In this document: positions 2,203 through 46,861 of the stretch, one piece after another
How the letters are laid out: the number at the start of each line of letters is the position of its first letter
Numbering within the stretch: the stretch's first letter is position 1
Sequence record: OR352947.1
Length of the DNA stretch: 64,000 nucleotides
Source: Escherichia phage AV117
Reading direction: 5' to 3' (one strand)
Program-made: the position numbers and the translations under genes
The notes under the pieces: model-generated
Database searches by the model: none
Seen by the model: the letters and a program-made list of their open reading frames with translations, nothing else
What the model was told of the DNA's origin: nothing

Positions 2203-3872
2203 TGATGAGTGATATCGCCACCGATTGGACGATAAGAAACACCGGTTTCTTTATCAGTTAGTACCCATTTACCAGGATTTTTTGTAATCAGAGTAGCCGT
2301 TACAGGTTCTGCTACGTCATAACTAATAGAGCCGTCCTGAAGTACACGGCCCATGTTACGTAATTGCTTAGTCAGAAGTTCCATACCTTTATAATATGCG
2401 GCTACCGCTTTAAGTGGATTATTCTTGAAATAACCACCTAATGCAATCCAGATAATTGCCGCTGCCAAATGATGATACTCGTTAAACGAACTCATCTTTC
2501 CATATTTGTAAACTAATGGATTGATGTTAATAGACACATTACAAGTTGTTTCATCGATAGTAAACTGTCCCCAGGTCGGATTAGCATTGAATTCATCATA
2601 ACCTGAAACAGCGTAAAGCACTTTAGCTTCATCATACAATTTTGGGCCGTAAATCTTGGTTTCGCCAAAATATCCACGAGGGTCGATAAACTTGACTTCG
2701 CCGTTATCAGTAATCATAGTATTACTGAAGTTCGGGTCACCATGAATAACAGAGTACTGTCCCTGAGAACGGTTATGATAACGAATAAGGTGTTCTAAAG
2801 CTTGTTTCAGCATTGGTTTCAGACGCCCAATCTTAGTGTAGTTCACATGTGTGATTTTACCAAATGAATCAATCAATGGTTGAATACTTTCACAACGATC
2901 AATGACTTTAGTATAGAATTCTTTAGTGAAATCACGACGAACAGTTTCAGGACTTACAAAATAAGTGTCTGTGCTGAATTTCAGTGCGTCTAAAATTGCA
3001 TCAACAATTTGTGGACGAGCAAGACTCGATTTGGATTTAATATATTCAAATGCTGGCTTACCTTTAATGCGTTCCATTTCAAAGTTATTTTCATTAACAG
3101 AAACTAACTGAGGAACTGAATCTGATTTCACTTTAAGATACCATGAAATCTCATCTTTCTGAAGAGCTCGACCCTGTTCGGTTAATGCGAATTTAGTTAC
3201 AGTTTCTTCACCAATTTCAACTGCATTAAAACTACGATTAAGTTCACGAACTTCATGAGCTTTTTCAAGTTTAGGCATATCACCTAAATCAATTAGATTC
3301 ATAAGCTCTGATTTATTGAATGCGCTGCCGTAAAGGAATTCTACGAAATCGCGTCCTTTGCAGTATTCATGAATTTCCTCATCAGTAGAACCCATATAGA
3401 ATTCCCAGTCTTTGAACTGATAAATTCCTACAACATTACCACCTGTTGAACCTACGTTAGTGATATTTTCACCGTCGAAATTATATCGACATTCGTCACC
3501 CTTAACATAGATTGCGTTAACATTCCAAGACCATGAACCAAAATCAGGAATAATATCACACCAGTTAACAATTACATTATGGCCGTCTAAATCTTTGTGC
3601 AATTTAGCAAGAGCATAAGCAGAACCATACGCTTCATCAACTGTACGAATAGTCACATTGAACCCTTCTTGCTCACAATAAGCTCGAACAGTTTCAGCAA
3701 ATTTTGAATGAACTACTACAATAATTTCATCTGCGCCAAGGTCAGAATAAATTGTATACAAATTGCTCAGAATAGTGTCTTGTTTATAATTAACAAGCAC
3801 CTTAGGAATATGATGCGTTATTGGATACAAACGAGTTGCCAGTCCAGCACCAAGAATAACAGCTTTTTTCAT
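2187..3872 (-). CDS. bifunctional sugar nucleotidyltransferase / sugar 1-kinase (NDP-sugar synthesis)
   Basis: 561 aa; N-terminal MKKAVILGAGLATRLYPIT is the GxGxR NTP-transferase signature (RmlA/GlmU-like); C-terminal HGDPNFSN and DPRGYFG resemble the catalytic loop of APH/choline-kinase-like kinases. Confidence 0.75.
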   Translation of the reverse strand: MKKAVILGAGLATRLYPITHHIPKVLVNYKQDTILSNLYTIYSDLGADEIIVVVHSKFAETVRAYCEQEGFNVTIRTVDEAYGSAYALAKLHKDLDGHNVIVNWCDIIPDFGSWSWNVNAIYVKGDECRYNFDGENITNVGSTGGNVVGIYQFKDWEFYMGSTDEEIHEYCKGRDFVEFLYGSAFNKSELMNLIDLGDMPKLEKAHEVRELNRSFNAVEIGEETVTKFALTEQGRALQKDEISWYLKVKSDSVPQLVSVNENNFEMERIKGKPAFEYIKSKSSLARPQIVDAILDALKFSTDTYFVSPETVRRDFTKEFYTKVIDRCESIQPLIDSFGKITHVNYTKIGRLKPMLKQALEHLIRYHNRSQGQYSVIHGDPNFSNTMITDNGEVKFIDPRGYFGETKIYGPKLYDEAKVLYAVSGYDEFNANPTWGQFTIDETTCNVSININPLVYKYGKMSSFNEYHHLAAAIIWIALGGYFKNNPLKAVAAYYKGMELLTKQLRNMGRVLQDGSISYDVAEPVTATLITKNPGKWVLTDKETGVSYRPIGGDITHQWERI

Positions 3873-3913
3873 GTTGTGGTCCTCATTGGTAAGTAGGAGT
3901 ATTGTACACTATT

Positions 3914-4057
3914 CTAGTTAAAGCATTCATACTTTGCTTGTAGTCCAATCATAATCCATCCGATTATAAGAGTCGGAACCATTACTGGAGCCGTTAAGCT
4001 CCAGTAGATAGTCATGACAAGCATCAATAGTAAAAGTCCTATTGTTATTGCTTTCAT
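3914..4057 (-). CDS. small hydrophobic membrane peptide (47 aa)
   Basis: ATG overlaps stop of upstream SIS gene (ATGA); MKAITIGLLLLMLVMTIYWSLTAPVMVPTLIIGWIMIGLQAKYECFN, two hydrophobic segments; below ORF-track size cutoff. Confidence 0.4.
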   Translation of the reverse strand: MKAITIGLLLLMLVMTIYWSLTAPVMVPTLIIGWIMIGLQAKYECFN

Positions 4058-40493: not shown

Positions 40494-40967
40494 TTATAGG
40501 ATGGTAGTGAGCACCTTATATAATGATTTGCCCATTACATATTCCCATTGAGAAGGTTTAATTAAAGCGAATGCATCAAATTCAGGAATCTGTCGTCCGT
40601 CTTGGAACGTATGATAGGAATTACAAACACTGTTTCTGAATTGCTCGTGCTCTACAGGGATGGTATATAGGAACAGATGAATATTCTTATTGTCTGAGTA
40701 ACGATGTTCACCTAGGTCTTTCAGGAAGGCAGGGTCATATTGTGTAAACCCAGTTTCTTCTTCGCATTCACGAATAGCGGCTTCGATAGGAGATTCACCT
40801 GGCTCGACACGGCCTTTAGGAATATCCCACCGATGAGCTAAAGAACCTTTAGGACGAGAACCAGTTACACGCCCCATGAATAATTCTTTATCTTCGGTAA
40901 GGAAAATAATACCGGCTGATAGTTCTTTCACTTTATTTTTCTTACTCATCATCTCAAATTCCTGCAT
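40494..40967 (-). CDS. nudE: Nudix hydrolase NudE
   Basis: Nudix box GRVEPGESPIEAAIRECEEETG; true start may be an internal ATG (MSKK). Confidence 0.88.
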   Translation of the reverse strand: MQEFEMMSKKNKVKELSAGIIFLTEDKELFMGRVTGSRPKGSLAHRWDIPKGRVEPGESPIEAAIRECEEETGFTQYDPAFLKDLGEHRYSDNKNIHLFLYTIPVEHEQFRNSVCNSYHTFQDGRQIPEFDAFALIKPSQWEYVMGKSLYKVLTTIL

Positions 40968-41440
40968 TCGGTAATAAAACGTTCAACTTCATTATTCTTG
41001 GCCTTTATCTTGTCTTTACGTTCCTGTAAACTACTTTTAACAAGATTAATAATGATGGCGGCGGTACCGCCGCCAATGATGCCACCAACAACACTTATGA
41101 TACTAGATGCTAATAAGATAGCAATAATATCAACAAAACCGAAAGAACTCACCTTAGTACTGAAAAACCATATAGATGGTACAAATATAATCCATCCTGT
41201 TATCCATTGGCACTTATTGAAAAACCTTTCAAGCTCAGCTTGAGTTGTTCGTATTACTTCATCGATAGGTTGATATCCATTAATGTATCTGTTCACGATA
41301 ATACCTGCTGGCTGGTCGATTTTAAATTCTTGGCAAATATGTTTCACTAAGTAGGATGGACAGGATGTCCAATCTACTGAATAGTATGAAATACCTTCAT
41401 TGCCATCGTCTATATTAGACCAATATGTTTTGTTAATCAT
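40949..41440 (-). CDS. hypothetical membrane protein (C-terminal ERFITECR motif)
   Basis: 163 aa; hydrophobic core, Gly-rich TM, C-terminus carries motif overlapping downstream RBS. Confidence 0.5.
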   Translation of the reverse strand: MINKTYWSNIDDGNEGISYYSVDWTSCPSYLVKHICQEFKIDQPAGIIVNRYINGYQPIDEVIRTTQAELERFFNKCQWITGWIIFVPSIWFFSTKVSSFGFVDIIAILLASSIISVVGGIIGGGTAAIIINLVKSSLQERKDKIKAKNNEVERFITECRNLR

Positions 41441-42126
41441 TACCAGCCTTCCATAGGGAATTCCAGATAAACTTGAGCATTGACACGAATTTCATTGGTA
41501 ATCTTTTTAACTCGGTCTGTATTACGAGATACACGTCCGAACCAACGCCATCCATTACTAATTGCACGAGAACCAGTGTGCCATGTTTGCCAATCAAACT
41601 GAAGAAGAGTACGATCTGGAGCTTCCCATTTCTCTAGTTCACCTTTTTCGATTTTTTCGAGGACTTCTTTGTGCCACTGGCGATAGATAAGTTCGCCATC
41701 AGGAATCTGACTGAACTCTGCAGTTCCTGTTGCAAAATGAGTAGGACACACATCAGCGTTAACAAGACCAAGAATATGTTCAGAATGGTAACGAGGGTTG
41801 TCATAGTCAGGTTGTCCTGCAGTAATAAAGTGTTGACCAACTGGAATATCAGGGCGTGGTACGTCATCATGGTGATAGCCTGGGATTGCAGGATACCAAC
41901 CAGGCATCAGCATGTGGACTCGTGAATCAAATACAACCTGGTCGGTGTTCCAATCATCCGGCAAGTTCATAATGAAAGAGCGAGTAATAGGACCGCCATT
42001 ATTATAAGCAAATTCTAAACTACAGTTGAAGAACATAGGCTCGTTCTTGATTTTATCATTAGAAATACCGCCAGCAAAACCACCTACTGCACGAGCTTGA
42101 CTATTAAACACTTTAGAACTATTCAT
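41440..42126 (-). CDS. hypothetical protein
   Basis: 228 aa; His-rich GYHHDD...H segment (possible metal site, unverified). Confidence 0.5.
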   Translation of the reverse strand: MNSSKVFNSQARAVGGFAGGISNDKIKNEPMFFNCSLEFAYNNGGPITRSFIMNLPDDWNTDQVVFDSRVHMLMPGWYPAIPGYHHDDVPRPDIPVGQHFITAGQPDYDNPRYHSEHILGLVNADVCPTHFATGTAEFSQIPDGELIYRQWHKEVLEKIEKGELEKWEAPDRTLLQFDWQTWHTGSRAISNGWRWFGRVSRNTDRVKKITNEIRVNAQVYLEFPMEGW

Positions 42127-42127
42127 A

Positions 42128-42433
42128 TTATTTTCCTCGACATTCTTTAATGAAATTTTCTAGATTGGTAGATTCAATAGCTTTTTTACGAGCTTCTGCG
42201 TGTTCTTCTTCGGACAATTTACGTTTATAATTGACCCAGACATTATGGTCGAAACCAGTCGTGGCATATAATAACAATGCTCCAACGAATAGCAAAAACG
42301 GCGATAAGAATACAAAACCAGGAACACCATCCATATCGTAAGCCTTTTGTAATACTGCAACAGAAAGAGCTACGTAAAAAGGTGATGCAAGTATTGTTAA
42401 AAGACCAATTCGGTTGGTTTCTGTTAATTTCAT
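42128..42433 (-). CDS. hypothetical membrane protein (C-terminal ENFIKECR motif)
   Basis: 101 aa; two TM segments; C-terminal ENFIKECRGK. Confidence 0.5.
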   Translation of the reverse strand: MKLTETNRIGLLTILASPFYVALSVAVLQKAYDMDGVPGFVFLSPFLLFVGALLLYATTGFDHNVWVNYKRKLSEEEHAEARKKAIESTNLENFIKECRGK

Positions 42434-42459
42434 AATATTCTCCTCAAGTTGATAGGACT

Positions 42460-42487
42460 ACTATAACATAGCCCTATCAGTTTGTAC
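42460..42487 (-). promoter_or_regulatory. early-type promoter with palindrome
   Basis: GATAGGACTA-ctataacat-AGCCCTATC around -10; variant -35. Confidence 0.45.
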
Positions 42488-42489
42488 AC

Positions 42490-42690
42490 TTATTTTGACA
42501 TTTCTTCGATGTCACGACGATACCCATCACGAACTTCACGAAGAGCTTCAAGGCCACACATAGGCTCGATACCAGTAATGTGAACTTGATTAATCTGATA
42601 CTCTACATCTTCTAACTGAGCGAAAACATAACGACGTTCTGCTGCACAACCAGGTTTAGCTTTACCGAAACGTTTATTCAAAGTAGTCAT
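42490..42690 (-). CDS. hypothetical protein
   Basis: start set at ATG 42690 (MTTLNKRF) downstream of promoter. Confidence 0.4.
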   Translation of the reverse strand: MTTLNKRFGKAKPGCAAERRYVFAQLEDVEYQINQVHITGIEPMCGLEALREVRDGYRRDIEEMSK

Positions 42691-42728
42691 TTTTATATCT
42701 CCATTCACTCATTTGTTTTGATAGGTCT

Positions 42729-42758
42729 ATAGTATCAACAACTACAGACCTTGTAAAC
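42729..42758 (-). promoter_or_regulatory. early-type promoter
   Basis: minus-strand GTTTAC-N18-TACTAT; AGGTCT/AGACCT inverted repeat. Confidence 0.5.
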
Positions 42759-42771
42759 AGTTTTTGCGAAA

Positions 42772-43728
42772 TTATTTGAAAGGTTTTACCATATGAAAGT
42801 TTTGTTTGAAACGCTTGACGTAATCGTCATGTCCTAAGCTTTGGTACATACTTACTACTTTGCTATAATTTTCCCAAGCGAACTCACGGAACCAACCGGA
42901 GGTGATGCTTGTGCAGACTTTTTCTAATGCCATCATGAAACTGGCTTCAGGGTTAATTTCAAAGTTATTAGGAATCTGAGAACGTTCTAACGCTAGTACA
43001 CATGATTCTTCGTATACACCGGCCAATTTGACCATTTCTGGTAACGATTCGAACTTCTCGCGTGAGGTCATGACTTCAGAACCGTCTTTCATGTAAAACG
43101 TATATGCTGGACGGTCTGTTAGTGCAATGGCTTCATGAATAGTATCATGGTCATATGTATAGATATCATCTTTAAAGAACGCACTTTTAGAAGTGTCAAG
43201 AACTGGGTGAGCATAGTTCAAGGTTTCTTTCTGGCGTTTCAGCATAATTTCAGTAAGTTCATCGTTCAGTATAACACCTTTACCACGAAGATACTGAATA
43301 TGGTTCATAGTCTTTAAAAAGAATGGATTATTTTTCTTGAAACGATGAGACATCTTAATTGCAAGGCACATCTCAGGAGTTGCCCAGTAAAACCCGTTCA
43401 AACGGTCTTTAGTCAAATTTTTCTTGGCGTATTTTAAAAGGTCATAAGAAGACGTGAAATCTTCAGGAGTGAGTTCACCGACCAATTCACGGACATTAGT
43501 GATTGCCGGAACAATATATGCTTCAAAATGAGTTTCGCGTCCATTATGGAAGCATTTGAAAACTTGGACATCAGGGTTATCTTGATGAACATATACACCC
43601 ATCATTTGATTTTTAAATGCATTCCAAGAACTTTGGTCTGCAATAAAGTCCCAATCACTATTTTTGATAGCGTTAGAATCAATAAGACCGTGATAGTGAA
43701 GTGCACGAGAACCAATAACTAACATCAT
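42772..43728 (-). CDS. hypothetical protein with weak nucleotidyltransferase-like N-terminus
   Basis: 318 aa; IGSRALHYHG...SDWDF loosely fits GS...DxD. Confidence 0.45.
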   Translation of the reverse strand: MMLVIGSRALHYHGLIDSNAIKNSDWDFIADQSSWNAFKNQMMGVYVHQDNPDVQVFKCFHNGRETHFEAYIVPAITNVRELVGELTPEDFTSSYDLLKYAKKNLTKDRLNGFYWATPEMCLAIKMSHRFKKNNPFFLKTMNHIQYLRGKGVILNDELTEIMLKRQKETLNYAHPVLDTSKSAFFKDDIYTYDHDTIHEAIALTDRPAYTFYMKDGSEVMTSREKFESLPEMVKLAGVYEESCVLALERSQIPNNFEINPEASFMMALEKVCTSITSGWFREFAWENYSKVVSMYQSLGHDDYVKRFKQNFHMVKPFK

Positions 43729-43752
43729 AATATTTTCCTCGGATTAATTAAC

Positions 43753-43992
43753 TTAAATTTCACGACATGCGATATTATATTCATCCCAGAGGTCATCGTG
43801 TGAAGCCTCTACCAATGGAACGATTGTACCATTTATATCTTCATTATAAGGGCAAATTGTACAATGTGCATCTTCGAATCGGATGCCTTTGTGTTCAGAT
43901 TTTTTATAACGCATATCGAATATCTTTGCAAACTTTTCACGAGTAATGGTTTTAGCAACCACTTCGGTTCCAACACTTTCATAATAAATCAT
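43753..43992 (-). CDS. hypothetical protein
   Basis: start set at ATG 43992; C-terminal NIACREI. Confidence 0.45.
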   Translation of the reverse strand: MIYYESVGTEVVAKTITREKFAKIFDMRYKKSEHKGIRFEDAHCTICPYNEDINGTIVPLVEASHDDLWDEYNIACREI

Positions 43993-44020
43993 TGTGGACT
44001 CCATTTAATTTGATAGGACT

Positions 44021-44050
44021 ACTATAACATAGTCCTATCTTGTTGTAAAC
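44021..44050 (-). promoter_or_regulatory. early-type promoter with perfect palindrome
   Basis: GTTTAC-N18-TATAGT; GATAGGACTA-ctataacat-AGTCCTATC identical to cassette at 50742..50769. Confidence 0.55.
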
Positions 44051-44054
44051 TGTT

Positions 44055-44252
44055 TTAGCAAGAATAACTAGATGATACCCAGCCTTGAACAGTGATACTA
44101 TTGTGGGATAATGAGATCGCGTCCTGGAGATTCAGACCTGCGTTATCTTCAATCCATAACGTAACTTCTTCGCGTTCTTCTGTTGCAATTTGGAACAGGT
44201 TTTCCAGAGCAGCTACTGCCGTACGTACAGCACAATCTAATTCACGAGACAT
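44055..44252 (-). CDS. hypothetical protein, SSxxC-tail family member
   Basis: 65 aa; C-terminal QGWVSSSYSC. Confidence 0.5.
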   Translation of the reverse strand: MSRELDCAVRTAVAALENLFQIATEEREEVTLWIEDNAGLNLQDAISLSHNSITVQGWVSSSYSC

Positions 44253-44261
44253 ATGGTTTCC

Positions 44262-44534
44262 TTAACAAGTGTGAGAAGATGCGATCCAACCACCAGTTTC
44301 GAGGCTCAGGTTGTAGTCGTATTGGTAAACGTCGGCCCATTCAGCATAGCCATTTTTTGTACAACGTTCAAGATCGGCTTTAAGTTGTCCGGGTGAATGA
44401 TAGGTTCCACCCATACCATAAGCTGGACACAAGTCGAATGATGTGTTTTGTTTATCAGCAATTTCTTTGGCAGCCTCAATAGCTGCATAGATTTTTGCTA
44501 CAGCTTCAGCCAGTTCGGTTTGTTCTTTAGACAT
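44262..44534 (-). CDS. hypothetical protein, SSxxC-tail family member
   Basis: 90 aa; C-terminal GGWIASSHTC. Confidence 0.5.
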   Translation of the reverse strand: MSKEQTELAEAVAKIYAAIEAAKEIADKQNTSFDLCPAYGMGGTYHSPGQLKADLERCTKNGYAEWADVYQYDYNLSLETGGWIASSHTC

Positions 44535-44543
44535 AGTGATTCC

Positions 44544-44849
44544 TTAGCACAACGCAGAAGACGAAACCCAAGCACCTTCAGTAATAATGTAACCATTACC
44601 TTCACGCTTAACATCGCCACCATTATTTTCAATTTCATCTTTCATCCACTGGGATACGATTTCACCCTTAGGATAATAAGTACGACCACTACCATAATCA
44701 CCTACAGAAAATGATACGGCATATTGGTCTGCGATCTTTGTTGCTTCTTCTTCGATACGTTCAGCTTGATTCAGAAGTTTATAAATTGCATCTGAAGCGG
44801 ATTTGGCATCATTAAACTCTGGTACTTTAATTTCAATAATCTTACTCAT
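44544..44849 (-). CDS. hypothetical protein, SSxxC-tail family member
   Basis: 101 aa; C-terminal GAWVSSSALC; ATGA overlap with upstream gene. Confidence 0.5.
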   Translation of the reverse strand: MSKIIEIKVPEFNDAKSASDAIYKLLNQAERIEEEATKIADQYAVSFSVGDYGSGRTYYPKGEIVSQWMKDEIENNGGDVKREGNGYIITEGAWVSSSALC

Positions 44850-45205
44850 TTTCTACATTCCTTAATAAAGTTTTCGATTGTTTCATTTTCACGTCTAGCT
44901 AGGAGTTCATTATAACTAATCATTTGAGAAGCGTAAACCTTTTTATTTTTCTTGTTATGGTTTATAAAATCGTAGTAAAAATAGACTACAGTACAAAATG
45001 ATGCGATGGATGCAAAGGCTTGTGTATACCGTAAGTCCTGCCATTGGTCTGTGAATCCGCCAGTGTTCCCTATAAATCCTAACACAACGCCGTCAATAAG
45101 AAATCCAACTAATCCAAAGGCAAATCCCATGCCAATACTCATAATAAAAATTAGAATGTTCTCACCAAGAGAAGGCCATACGGTTAAGAGTTGAGGCTTT
45201 TGCAT
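44846..45205 (-). CDS. hypothetical membrane protein (C-terminal ENFIKECR motif)
   Basis: 119 aa; three hydrophobic segments; C-terminal ENFIKECRK. Confidence 0.5.
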   Translation of the reverse strand: MQKPQLLTVWPSLGENILIFIMSIGMGFAFGLVGFLIDGVVLGFIGNTGGFTDQWQDLRYTQAFASIASFCTVVYFYYDFINHNKKNKKVYASQMISYNELLARRENETIENFIKECRK

Positions 45206-45579
45206 CTTATTTCCTTAACGAATTCCATAGCTTCTTCATATTCATACTTTTTAACAGCTTCATCATACTGAGCTTGGGCTTTTGCGCACTGAACTTTCCA
45301 CTCACGAACTCGAGCTCTGTGATGACGGCCTTGGTGCCAATATCCTGCCCAATTAATAGGCATTAATAAAAACGGTACAATAAGTGGTGCGACGAACATT
45401 AATGAAAACGCTGCATCAGACGATATAACTTTATTGGAATCTAAAACAGCTCCTATAATCATAAAGATTAAAAACGCTAAAGCTAAAATAGGGCCAAATA
45501 GTACTTCATTTGGGATTAATTTACGTTTGTATTCGTATGCCCAGGGCTTAATTGGCATGTACAGGGTTGGCTTTGACAT
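45184..45579 (-). CDS. hypothetical membrane protein
   Basis: start set at ATG 45579; TM segment; C-terminal EFVKEIRCK. Confidence 0.45.
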   Translation of the reverse strand: MSKPTLYMPIKPWAYEYKRKLIPNEVLFGPILALAFLIFMIIGAVLDSNKVISSDAAFSLMFVAPLIVPFLLMPINWAGYWHQGRHHRARVREWKVQCAKAQAQYDEAVKKYEYEEAMEFVKEIRCKSLNS

Positions 45580-46144
45580 ATTCTCTACATTCCATAATAA
45601 ATTGCTCAAGGATTAAATTGTTAGTGAAATTAGGACTAACAACCATGGTTTCATAAAGCGCATCAATAGCACTTAAAGCATCAACTCTTTTAAGCAAAGG
45701 CTTGCCTTCATACATAGTTTCAGAATCGACGATTAACGTAAAGTAATATTTTTTATTATCGACTAGAACTTCAGTATCGATATAAAACATGTTAGACCTT
45801 AAAAGCTTGTCTCTAAAGCCTAAGTAATCATCTGAACGTTCACTGATATAGTCCCATTCAGTGTTTAAACAACAAACAGACCACGTAGGAGCAACGAAAT
45901 CAGTGAATCTAATATCATGGTCTGCAACTAGTTTAGCAATAGCTCCGATATCATGAATCATAATACCTGGGGCTAATAAAGATTTTCGGTTATTTGCATA
46001 TTCAGTTGTCTCATAAGAAGACGACCAGTACCATTTACGTCCAGTTGCAACATATCGTAATGAATCAACTAAAGACGTAGGTGGATTTACCTTATTTCGG
46101 AACTCTTCGAACATTGAGTCAATATCATTATTTTGGTTTCGCAT
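45548..46144 (-). CDS. hypothetical protein
   Basis: start set at ATG 46144; contains EQFIMECRE near C-terminus. Confidence 0.45.
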   Translation of the reverse strand: MRNQNNDIDSMFEEFRNKVNPPTSLVDSLRYVATGRKWYWSSSYETTEYANNRKSLLAPGIMIHDIGAIAKLVADHDIRFTDFVAPTWSVCCLNTEWDYISERSDDYLGFRDKLLRSNMFYIDTEVLVDNKKYYFTLIVDSETMYEGKPLLKRVDALSAIDALYETMVVSPNFTNNLILEQFIMECREYVKANPVHAN

Positions 46145-46159
46145 GTTAACTCCTTTATT

Positions 46160-46185
46160 ATCCAAAAGGAGGACCGGAGTCCTCC
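46160..46185 (-). terminator. candidate terminator hairpin
   Basis: GGAGGAC-N4-GUCCUCC hairpin with U4 (minus) and U-rich tract (plus); possibly bidirectional. Confidence 0.45.
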
Positions 46186-46193
46186 GTATTATT

Positions 46194-46802
46194 TTATTTC
46201 AAAGAGTTAATATATTCTTGTACATCGGCAGAAGTGGTTTCGACACCGGTTGGAGTGCCATTGAACGTTTCAACACGAGTCAGAGTGTCTTCGATATCAA
46301 CCTTAGTTAGTGCAGCGATTTCAATTACATCATCGGCCGTAGAGATACCAAGGGCATTGGCTGCTCGAGTTTCACGAATGTATTCGAGTTTGATTGCCAG
46401 ATTCTGACGAGCATCATCAAGTTCAACCACCTTACGAGCAATTTCAATTCGCATAGCGGCATACCCGTCAGCTTTTGTATTAAGTTGTTCGGCAGTTCGA
46501 CGATACAGAAGACCAAGCTTAGCATGCATGGTAACATCTTGTCCTTCAGCCAGGAGCTTACGAATTTCACGTTCCTTAGAAGCTGCTTGCTTGTTCTTTT
46601 CATTAACAAGTTCGCGAATACGTTTTTCTTCATTAATAGATTTAACAGAAGCCGTTTTTAGTTCTTTGATTTGGGTAATCAACTTATCTGCAGCTGCGTT
46701 ATACTGTTCTTCGACAGTCAGATTTTTAGCCATAGCAGTACCCAGTTTAGTGCGGATGAATTCAACAAGTTTCTTCAGTGTGTTCATATTATTACCTTTC
46801 AA
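46194..46802 (-). CDS. coiled-coil protein, PspA/IM30-like pattern
   Basis: 202 aa; continuous heptad-type helices resembling phage-shock protein A; no enzymatic motif. Confidence 0.5.
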
Positions 46803-46809
46803 TTGGTGG

Positions 46810-46861
46810 TTTATTATCCAACGAGAGCATTATACTCTGCTCTCAAGAGTTTGTAAATTAT
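46810..46861 (-). repeat. 52-bp promoter-containing repeat, copy B
   Basis: matches 16545..16596 with 3 mismatches. Confidence 0.8.
46829..46857 (-). promoter_or_regulatory. early-type promoter
   Basis: minus-strand TTTACA-N17-TATAAT inside repeat copy B. Confidence 0.55.

Follow-up and report, generated by a model that had tools for sequence, protein, structure and literature searches.

A conserved C-terminal peptide motif on different proteins of the T4-like e.6–nudE cluster, overlaid with ribosome binding sites

In a tightly packed gene cluster of Escherichia phage AV117, several neighbouring genes end in nearly the same short peptide, and the ribosome binding site of the next gene lies in or beside the codons for it. 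This raises the question of what is conserved at these gene ends: a peptide, an RNA element, or the remnant of a single protein family. The initial annotation of a 64,000-nucleotide stretch of this phage (sequence record OR352947.1; the whole stretch is hereafter called the window) had proposed that six open reading frames (ORFs) encode small membrane proteins ending in or near variants of ENFIKECR, that the codons contain the Shine-Dalgarno (SD) sequence of the overlapping downstream gene, and that the motif may be a translation-coupling cassette reused at many junctions, a protein family, or both. The cluster extends from e.6 to nudE and the lysozyme gene e, with every gene on the minus strand, and its gene names were assigned by comparison with T4. 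The 6.5 kb around the motif genes are 96–97% identical to the Mosigvirus phages vB_EcoM_TU01, JS09 and phage 55. The source of the window is an RB69/JS09-like T4-type phage.

The shared C-terminal motif is genuine and well above chance. In the six-frame translation of all 64 kb, the pattern E.F[IV].EC[RK] matched four times, whereas 300 shuffles gave 0.003 matches on average, and all four strict copies were found in the e.6–nudE cluster, 1–11 residues before a stop codon (Table 1). The tripeptide ECR occurs only six times in the six frames, and four of these six belong to the strict copies. A degenerate copy is present in e.4, whose orthologues in other genera retain F-[IV]-K-E-[V/I/M/S]-R, and orthologues of ORF 40949 (fam6) were found in 20 loci, 19 of which carry the strict motif. 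ORF 43753, whose sequence EYNIACREI had been taken for a further variant, was excluded because the ends of its orthologues (...HNDYVAEI, ...HNTYCYEI and ...YDSARWDI) show no conserved F-I or C-R. Of the six ORFs originally listed, four are therefore strict carriers and e.4 a degenerate one, and the description as small membrane proteins fits four of these five, but not e.5, which has 198 amino acids and no convincing transmembrane (TM) segment.

The motif was also observed in other T4-like genomes. We gathered 33 T4-like loci with e.6 as anchor (e.6 identity 54–99%, about 1200 ORFs) and found 105 copies of the core F-[IV]-x-x-C-[RK], all of them within 16 residues of the C-terminus and all downstream of e.6. 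Among 1124 unique proteins there were 102 copies, again all C-terminal, versus 1.4 expected by residue shuffling. Every T4-like genome examined has 3–6 motif carriers grouped between e.6 and nudE. The complete T4 genome has 2 copies of the core only, in e.3 and e.5, and the window has just the 4 in the cluster. The corresponding T4 tails are KEFVIDCRKIK in e.3, MKFVKESRCKSQS in e.4 and EKFVKECREY… in e.5. In distant relatives, the gene directly after e.6 (e.5-like) still bears the motif, as in Aeromonas phage avDM5 (…ELFVDYCRRTASKK), in the Pseudotevenvirus phages EBPL and Xman (…EKFIHSCKKNV…) and in Aeromonas phage AsSzw2 (…SFINYCI… and …SFVEYCI…). A profile search of a 5.8-billion-protein collection with a 44-residue tail alignment returned 37 candidates and one weak match, and is for this reason silent on the breadth of the motif.

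The family-weighted consensus over 30 carrier families, numbered from the aromatic residue as position 0, consists of a hydrophobic residue at −3 (74%), E at −2 (44%), F or W at 0 (100%), I, V or L at +1 (99%), K at +2 (47%), E at +3 (36%), C at +4 (79%, otherwise M, V, A or I) and R or K at +5 (100%), followed by basic residues or Gly. The Arg is followed by 0–15 residues in the 33 loci and by up to about 26 in Pseudotevenvirus. Positions −3, 0, +1 and +4 fall on a single face of an alpha-helix, and an amphipathic periodicity is present.

No functional name was found for the carriers in Pfam, NCBIfam or PHROGs, the literature on these gene names returned nothing relevant, and the motif is not described in the libraries and papers searched. 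An exhaustive e.5 search and an e.5 structure model gave no functional lead. Relatives of e.5 carry the precomputed Pfam accession PF26876 in the protein collection, and the local Pfam search assigned e.5 itself to no family.

To judge whether the motif belongs to one protein family, we compared the carrier proteins with and without their tails. In pairwise BLASTP comparisons of the five window carriers, similarity is limited to the last 9–22 residues. After removal of the tails, neither BLASTP nor hhalign found similarity among the five, no body-only pair reaching a probability of 40, and the window carriers are assigned to different PHROGs, six in all. Over the 33 loci, the tail-less bodies fall into at least 20 BLAST-distinct clusters; body-only hhalign of the 30 families linked 12 of 435 pairs at a probability of at least 50, which leaves about 19 groups and links no window pair. 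Among some two-TM families outside the window, homology along the bodies is partly detectable. Sorted by TM segments, 19 of the families have two, 4 have one and 7 lack them. The two-TM carriers consist of a hairpin and then a tail of 26–60 residues, and the tail is predicted to be cytoplasmic because it lies on the more basic side in a crude positive-inside reading. The e.2-like protein has a soluble N-terminal domain before its two TM segments and predicted cytoplasmic tail. The non-TM families include the e.5-like proteins, which are the most widely conserved carriers, and soluble proteins of 95–135 residues.

The alternative that survives best is that tandem duplication of one ancestral small membrane protein gave rise to all the carriers, the motif being the slowest-evolving remnant with no function of its own. 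The carriers do stand in tandem arrays, the two-TM hairpin with its tail accounts for 19 of the 30 families, full-length hhalign joins families over 30–125 residues (for example fam6 with fam75, 76, 45 and 23), and phrog_2203 shows a weak match to residues 21–99 of the 101-residue protein. The seven non-TM families do not fit such a descent, since they have unrelated bodies of 95–320 residues and include the most widespread carriers, and the body-only profiles of the five window families are dissimilar. Moreover, near-invariant F, I and R amid an otherwise randomised sequence need direct selection, even in true paralogues. We regard ordinary family descent as unlikely. The motif is not plain conservation of a whole family, because the tail-less bodies show no similarity, and the peptide is better described as a module than as a family remnant, because soluble carriers have it too. 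These comparisons support a C-terminal peptide module carried by different protein bodies.

The ribosome binding sites of the following genes are overlaid on this peptide. The best anti-SD match lies within or touches the motif at all five window junctions, although at the e.5 junction it is merely a weak TGGAA, so that the proposed coincidence of motif and SD held in place but not always in the codons that had been named. The genes themselves overlap: the e.3 ATG (45205-45203) spans the R-C codons of e.4, the e.3 stop codon overlaps the next start as ATGA (44846-44849), the e.4 ATG at 45579 is within the e.5 tail, and the nudE ATG (40952-40950) overlaps the AGA-TGA end of the e.2-like gene. 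Across families, the next gene overlaps or abuts the gene, with its SD inside it, in 77% of motif families, compared with 35% of other families of the same clusters (Fisher p = 4e-4). It may occupy the variable x-x codons (AAGGAA, GAGGAA) or the codons of C-R-basic (CAGGAA, AGAGGT, CGAGGA), or lie farther downstream. Because the genes are tightly packed and mostly overlapping, the next SD is written into the x-x or C-R-basic codons. The codon of the motif Arg follows this use: of 35 unique cases with SD overlap, 29 (83%) have AGR, versus 16% AGR in background genes, and the codon is mainly CGT, CGC or CGG where the SD does not overlap. Split by family, the ratios are 15:1 and 10:7 (p = 0.04).

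These overlaps could mean that the nucleotides are what is kept, as a ribosome binding or re-initiation site for the next gene, with the peptide as a by-product. The positions of the SD in the window, its place in or beside the motif at most short-tail junctions elsewhere, its excess inside motif families and the AGR bias all agree with such an RNA cassette, as does a synonymous diversity that is reduced just past the motif (0.03–0.12 at positions +6 to +10). Within the motif, codon-level comparisons gave the opposite answer. When orthologues are compared family by family, the gene bodies have a baseline synonymous diversity of 0.22 and the motif codons have values of 0.20 (F), 0.25 (I/V), 0.29 (C) and 0.20 (R), so that the suggested comparison of synonymous with non-synonymous change revealed no suppression at these four positions; codon usage at F, I and C is near background. 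The two identical ENFIKECR copies of the window (42137 and 44852) differ in four of their eight codons. The replacements that occur, F to W, C to M, V, I or A, and R to K, are conservative for a protein, and those of F and C are not conservative for an RNA; the codons TGY (Cys), TTY (Phe) and ATH (Ile) are outside any SD. The spacing is also variable: the SD takes up three different positions with respect to the motif, with distances from the Cys codon to the ATG of 5, 7, 8, 10, 11, 13, 14, 16, 17, 20, 22, 23, 26, 28, 31, 34, 37 and 43 nt, or 65–90 nt across an intergenic promoter. Furthermore, the motif is complete in e.5-like families with the SD 14–40 nt downstream (fam8, fam15, fam37) and in genes that precede an intergenic promoter (fam22, fam36, fam61).

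Selection thus retains the peptide and not the RNA. As a sole explanation the RNA cassette is largely refuted, and we consider it very unlikely. A coupling cassette reused at the nucleotide level, as first envisaged, is not what the variable spacing, the free synonymous sites and the motif copies with a distant SD describe. Of the original choice between cassette, family or both, what stands is a combination, a peptide motif with a ribosome binding site overlaid on it, and neither an RNA cassette nor whole-family conservation. The selected peptide hosts the ribosome binding site and synonymous choice adjusts to it, which is the reverse of the causation in the initial annotation.

Two kinds of known gene junction invite comparison. 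Classical translational coupling resembles the motif junctions in having an SD in the last codons of the upstream gene, ATGA or TAATG overlaps and SD-adapted codons, and it explains the purine-rich K, E, R and G codons together with the AGR bias. It leaves unexplained the invariant F-I…C, the helical periodicity and why the motif is retained where no start codon is adjacent. The other is the promoter-early stem-loop (PeSL), a mobile regulatory cassette repeated at gene junctions of T4-like hyperplastic regions (PMC2839356, PMC4122927). Both PeSLs and the motif are short repeats at many hyperplastic gene junctions that take in the downstream SD and start. PeSLs are intergenic, contain a sigma-70 promoter and a hairpin, and are conserved in nucleotides, whereas the motif is coding, is conserved in amino acids and has neither promoter nor hairpin. 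At the four strict motif junctions no strong promoter-like site was found, the sole match being 9/12 at 40957-40930, while strong sites are present elsewhere, at 46857, 44049, 42757 and 42488. No hairpin was found at the motif; the hairpins found are at 46168-46185 and 44012-44039. Nor are the motif copies alike in nucleotides as PeSLs are, given the four of eight codons that separate the ENFIKECR pair.

The window also contains two PeSL-like elements on the minus strand (44012-44049 and 42460-42488). They are near-identical, are about 35 nt long with the sequence GATAGGxCTATGTTATAGTAGTCCTATC, and combine a promoter-like site (TTTACA/TGTACA…TATAGT) with a hairpin. They bound transcription units and are absent from the motif junctions.

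It is highly improbable that the motif is a recombination cassette, that is, a short DNA homology for PeSL-like exchange of modules. The region is hyperplastic, the genes present between e.6 and nudE vary greatly from genus to genus, PeSL-like elements are nearby and less than 50 bp of homology suffices for recombination in T4 (PMC2839356), but the motif offers only about 18–24 nt, with synonymous differences between copies in one genome and without promoter or hairpin at its junctions, and exchange gives no reason for a kept reading frame, conservative replacements or a strict C-terminal position. An effect of the nascent peptide, in which the last residues, still within the exit tunnel, influence how translation ends or restarts at the stop/start overlap, would suit the C-terminal position, the association with overlapping junctions and the basic residues before the stop, but deserves hardly any credence, as known arrest peptides require a fixed spacing to the P-site, the tail after Arg varies from 0–15 to about 26 residues with no fixed distance to the stop, and the motif also occurs where no gene overlaps. 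The T4 prohead-protease site (I-x-E followed by cleavage) was rejected, as the residue before Cys is E in just 36% of families. FtsZ-tail mimicry, ClpX/FtsH tags and clamp-binding motifs seem poor candidates, as they do not match in spacing.

What, then, might the peptide do? It is a protein-level C-terminal module that probably acts as a docking or assembly helix, a role to which we give moderate confidence. The amphipathic C-terminal helix would be a common handle, and it may bind one conserved partner, a host or a phage protein; a conserved partner surface is suggested because the peptide is conserved on fast-diverging carriers. Alternatively, the helices may associate mutually and bundle the carriers into one membrane-associated complex, in which case the tight coupling of the genes would give stoichiometric co-production of the subunits.

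Conserved C-terminal docking peptides are known from the SSB C-terminal tail, the conserved C-terminal peptide of FtsZ and the beta-clamp-binding motifs. Like these, the motif is short, strictly terminal and amphipathic, and is conserved while the body diverges; like the clamp-binding motifs, it is found on unrelated bodies. It differs in sequence and spacing, F-I-x-x-C-R not corresponding to DIPF, F-L-R-K or QLxLF, and also in that its carriers are all phage-encoded at one locus and its partner is putative.

One speculative candidate for the partner is e.6, which is highly conserved and is directly upstream of the first motif gene in all cases. Its nearly invariant C-terminus, ...VQEYINSLK, matches the motif pattern with Y at 0, I at +1, L at +4 and K at +5. 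The e.6 model is a long helical hairpin that resembles BAR and ESCRT-III/Vipp1 proteins in a non-specific way. A profile match was found neither to PspA_IM30 nor to any other Pfam family, and none to PDB sequences. A known parallel would be coiled-coil membrane proteins of the PspA/Vipp1/ESCRT-III or BAR type with their small membrane partners (PspB/PspC); the fold match is non-specific, since long hairpins also match SMC proteins, the dynein stalk and chemoreceptors.

Several points weigh against a docking helix shared by different bodies. The two-TM carriers may be fast-diverging paralogues, which weakens the argument from different bodies for them, and with the tails kept in hhalign, the alignments of several families with one another cover 30–85 C-terminal residues. 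The TM and topology calls come from a crude hydropathy scan. In the e.5 structure model a helix is predicted over residues 177-192, but the model is of low confidence (predicted local distance difference test, pLDDT, 60) and helix packing is not readable from it. The docking partner is itself a prediction, with e.6 or a host protein as candidates. A plain docking model offers no explanation for the Cys found at +4 in most families, and this preference suggests something beyond packing, such as a role for metal, redox chemistry or modification. Finally, the carriers are coupled to the next gene more than their neighbours are, which pure docking does not predict and a model of complex subunits does.

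In a bolder form of the assembly idea, the helices of e.5, e.4, e.3, the e.2-like protein and other carriers, possibly with the end of e.6, would pack as a single hetero-oligomeric bundle at the inner membrane, on its cytoplasmic side, with a layer of Cys residues (metal-, redox- or modification-dependent) under an Arg cap. The cluster would then encode a modular membrane complex of T4-like phages that has so far gone unrecognised, its bodies being swapped in the hyperplastic region while the helix is kept and coupling sets the ratios. We consider this full picture rather doubtful and offer it as a conjecture.

No function is known for e.2–e.6 or their relatives, although T4 is among the best-studied viruses. 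Since 3–6 clustered proteins per genome have this strictly C-terminal peptide in common, these ORFans are predicted to act together or on one target. The 10-residue motif is a possible bait for a common target and may be the first handle on these genes. The locus is also a clean natural case of dual coding, in which the same nucleotides encode an amino-acid motif and form a ribosome binding site, and the conflict is settled by synonymous choice, Arg AGR versus CGY.

Table 1. Genes, motif copies and SD sites of the e.6–nudE cluster in the window. Terminal sequences run to the stop codon.
Feature	Position	Strand	Description
e.6	46194-46787	-	197 aa, conserved, coiled-coil
e.5 homologue	45548-46144	-	198 aa, soluble alpha/beta, ends ...LILEQFIMECREYVKANPVHAN
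Motif EQFIMECR	45584-45607	-	in e.5, 11 residues before stop
e.4 homologue	45184-45579	-	131 aa, two TM segments, degenerate motif ...AMEFVKEIRCKSLNS
Degenerate motif EFVKEIRC	45202-45225	-	in e.4
SD TTAAGGAA	45211-45218	-	K-E codons of e.4, for e.3
e.3 homologue	44846-45205	-	119 aa, TM hairpin and predicted cytoplasmic helix, ends ...TIENFIKECRK
Motif ENFIKECR	44852-44875	-	in e.3, 1 residue before stop
SD-like TTAAGGAA	44858-44865	-	I-K-E codons of e.3, for the gene starting at 44849, dG -6.1
Small paralogue	44544-44849	-	phrog_899
Small paralogue	44262-44534	-	phrog_899
Small paralogue	44055-44252	-	phrog_899
83-aa ORF	43753-44004	-	
DUF7277 + DUF7275 protein	42772-43728	-	318 aa
72-aa ORF		-	between the 318-aa protein and the 101-aa gene
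101-aa two-TM protein	42128-42433	-	phrog_9798, ends ...NLENFIKECRGK
Motif ENFIKECR	42137-42160	-	in the 101-aa protein, 2 residues before stop
SD CGAGGA	42134-42139	-	R-G codons, for the 228-aa gene (ATG at 42126), dG -5.9
228-aa protein	41440-42126	-	phrog_1843, conserved
e.2-like protein	40949-41440	-	163 aa, phrog_2203, tail ends ...EVERFITECRNLR
Motif ERFITECR	40961-40984	-	in the e.2-like protein, 3 residues before stop
SD-like CAGGAA	40959-40964	-	C-R-N codons, for nudE
nudE, then lysozyme e		-	downstream of the e.2-like gene

The analysis of the junctions also led to a likely correction of the annotated nudE start. The ATG of the longest nudE ORF falls within the E-C codons of the gene before it (MQEFEMM…; window 40950-40967), and T4 NudE is annotated in the same way (MQEIKMK…; positions 3470-3491 of NC_000866, our locus L001). 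The true start is likely the downstream ATG, at 40952 in the window (MMSKKN…) and at MKTLSAG… in T4. This ATG is favoured because CAGGAA lies 7 nt before it and because of the orthologue N-termini; phage 55 annotates a NudE of 152 residues, which fits the start at 40952.

The e.2 gene of the T4 reference (3490-3960, 102 residues) looks frameshifted when compared with the 162-residue gene that is intact in close relatives (loci L006 and L008). About 25 codons are out of frame, after which the same frame is taken up again and runs to …NNFITECRKLK just ahead of nudE. The cause is either a genuine double frameshift or an old sequencing error in the reference.

A second C-terminal motif, distinct from F-I-x-x-C-R, is present in the cluster. 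The three tandem phrog_899 paralogues all have the ending W-[VI]-[SA]-S-S-x-x-C, in which Cys is the final residue of the protein. Related loci have 4–5 genes of this type (ending in …WVSSSMEC, …FWYSSSMSRC or …IWQSSSC), and T4 is without them. The 228-residue protein has the C-terminus NEIRVNAQVYLEFPMEGW in all 22 of its 22 orthologues, that of Aeromonas phage AsSzw2 included. The 318-residue DUF7277 and DUF7275 protein starts with MMLVIGSRAL…NSDWDF, which by eye looks like the G-S…D-x-D signature of Pol-beta nucleotidyltransferases.

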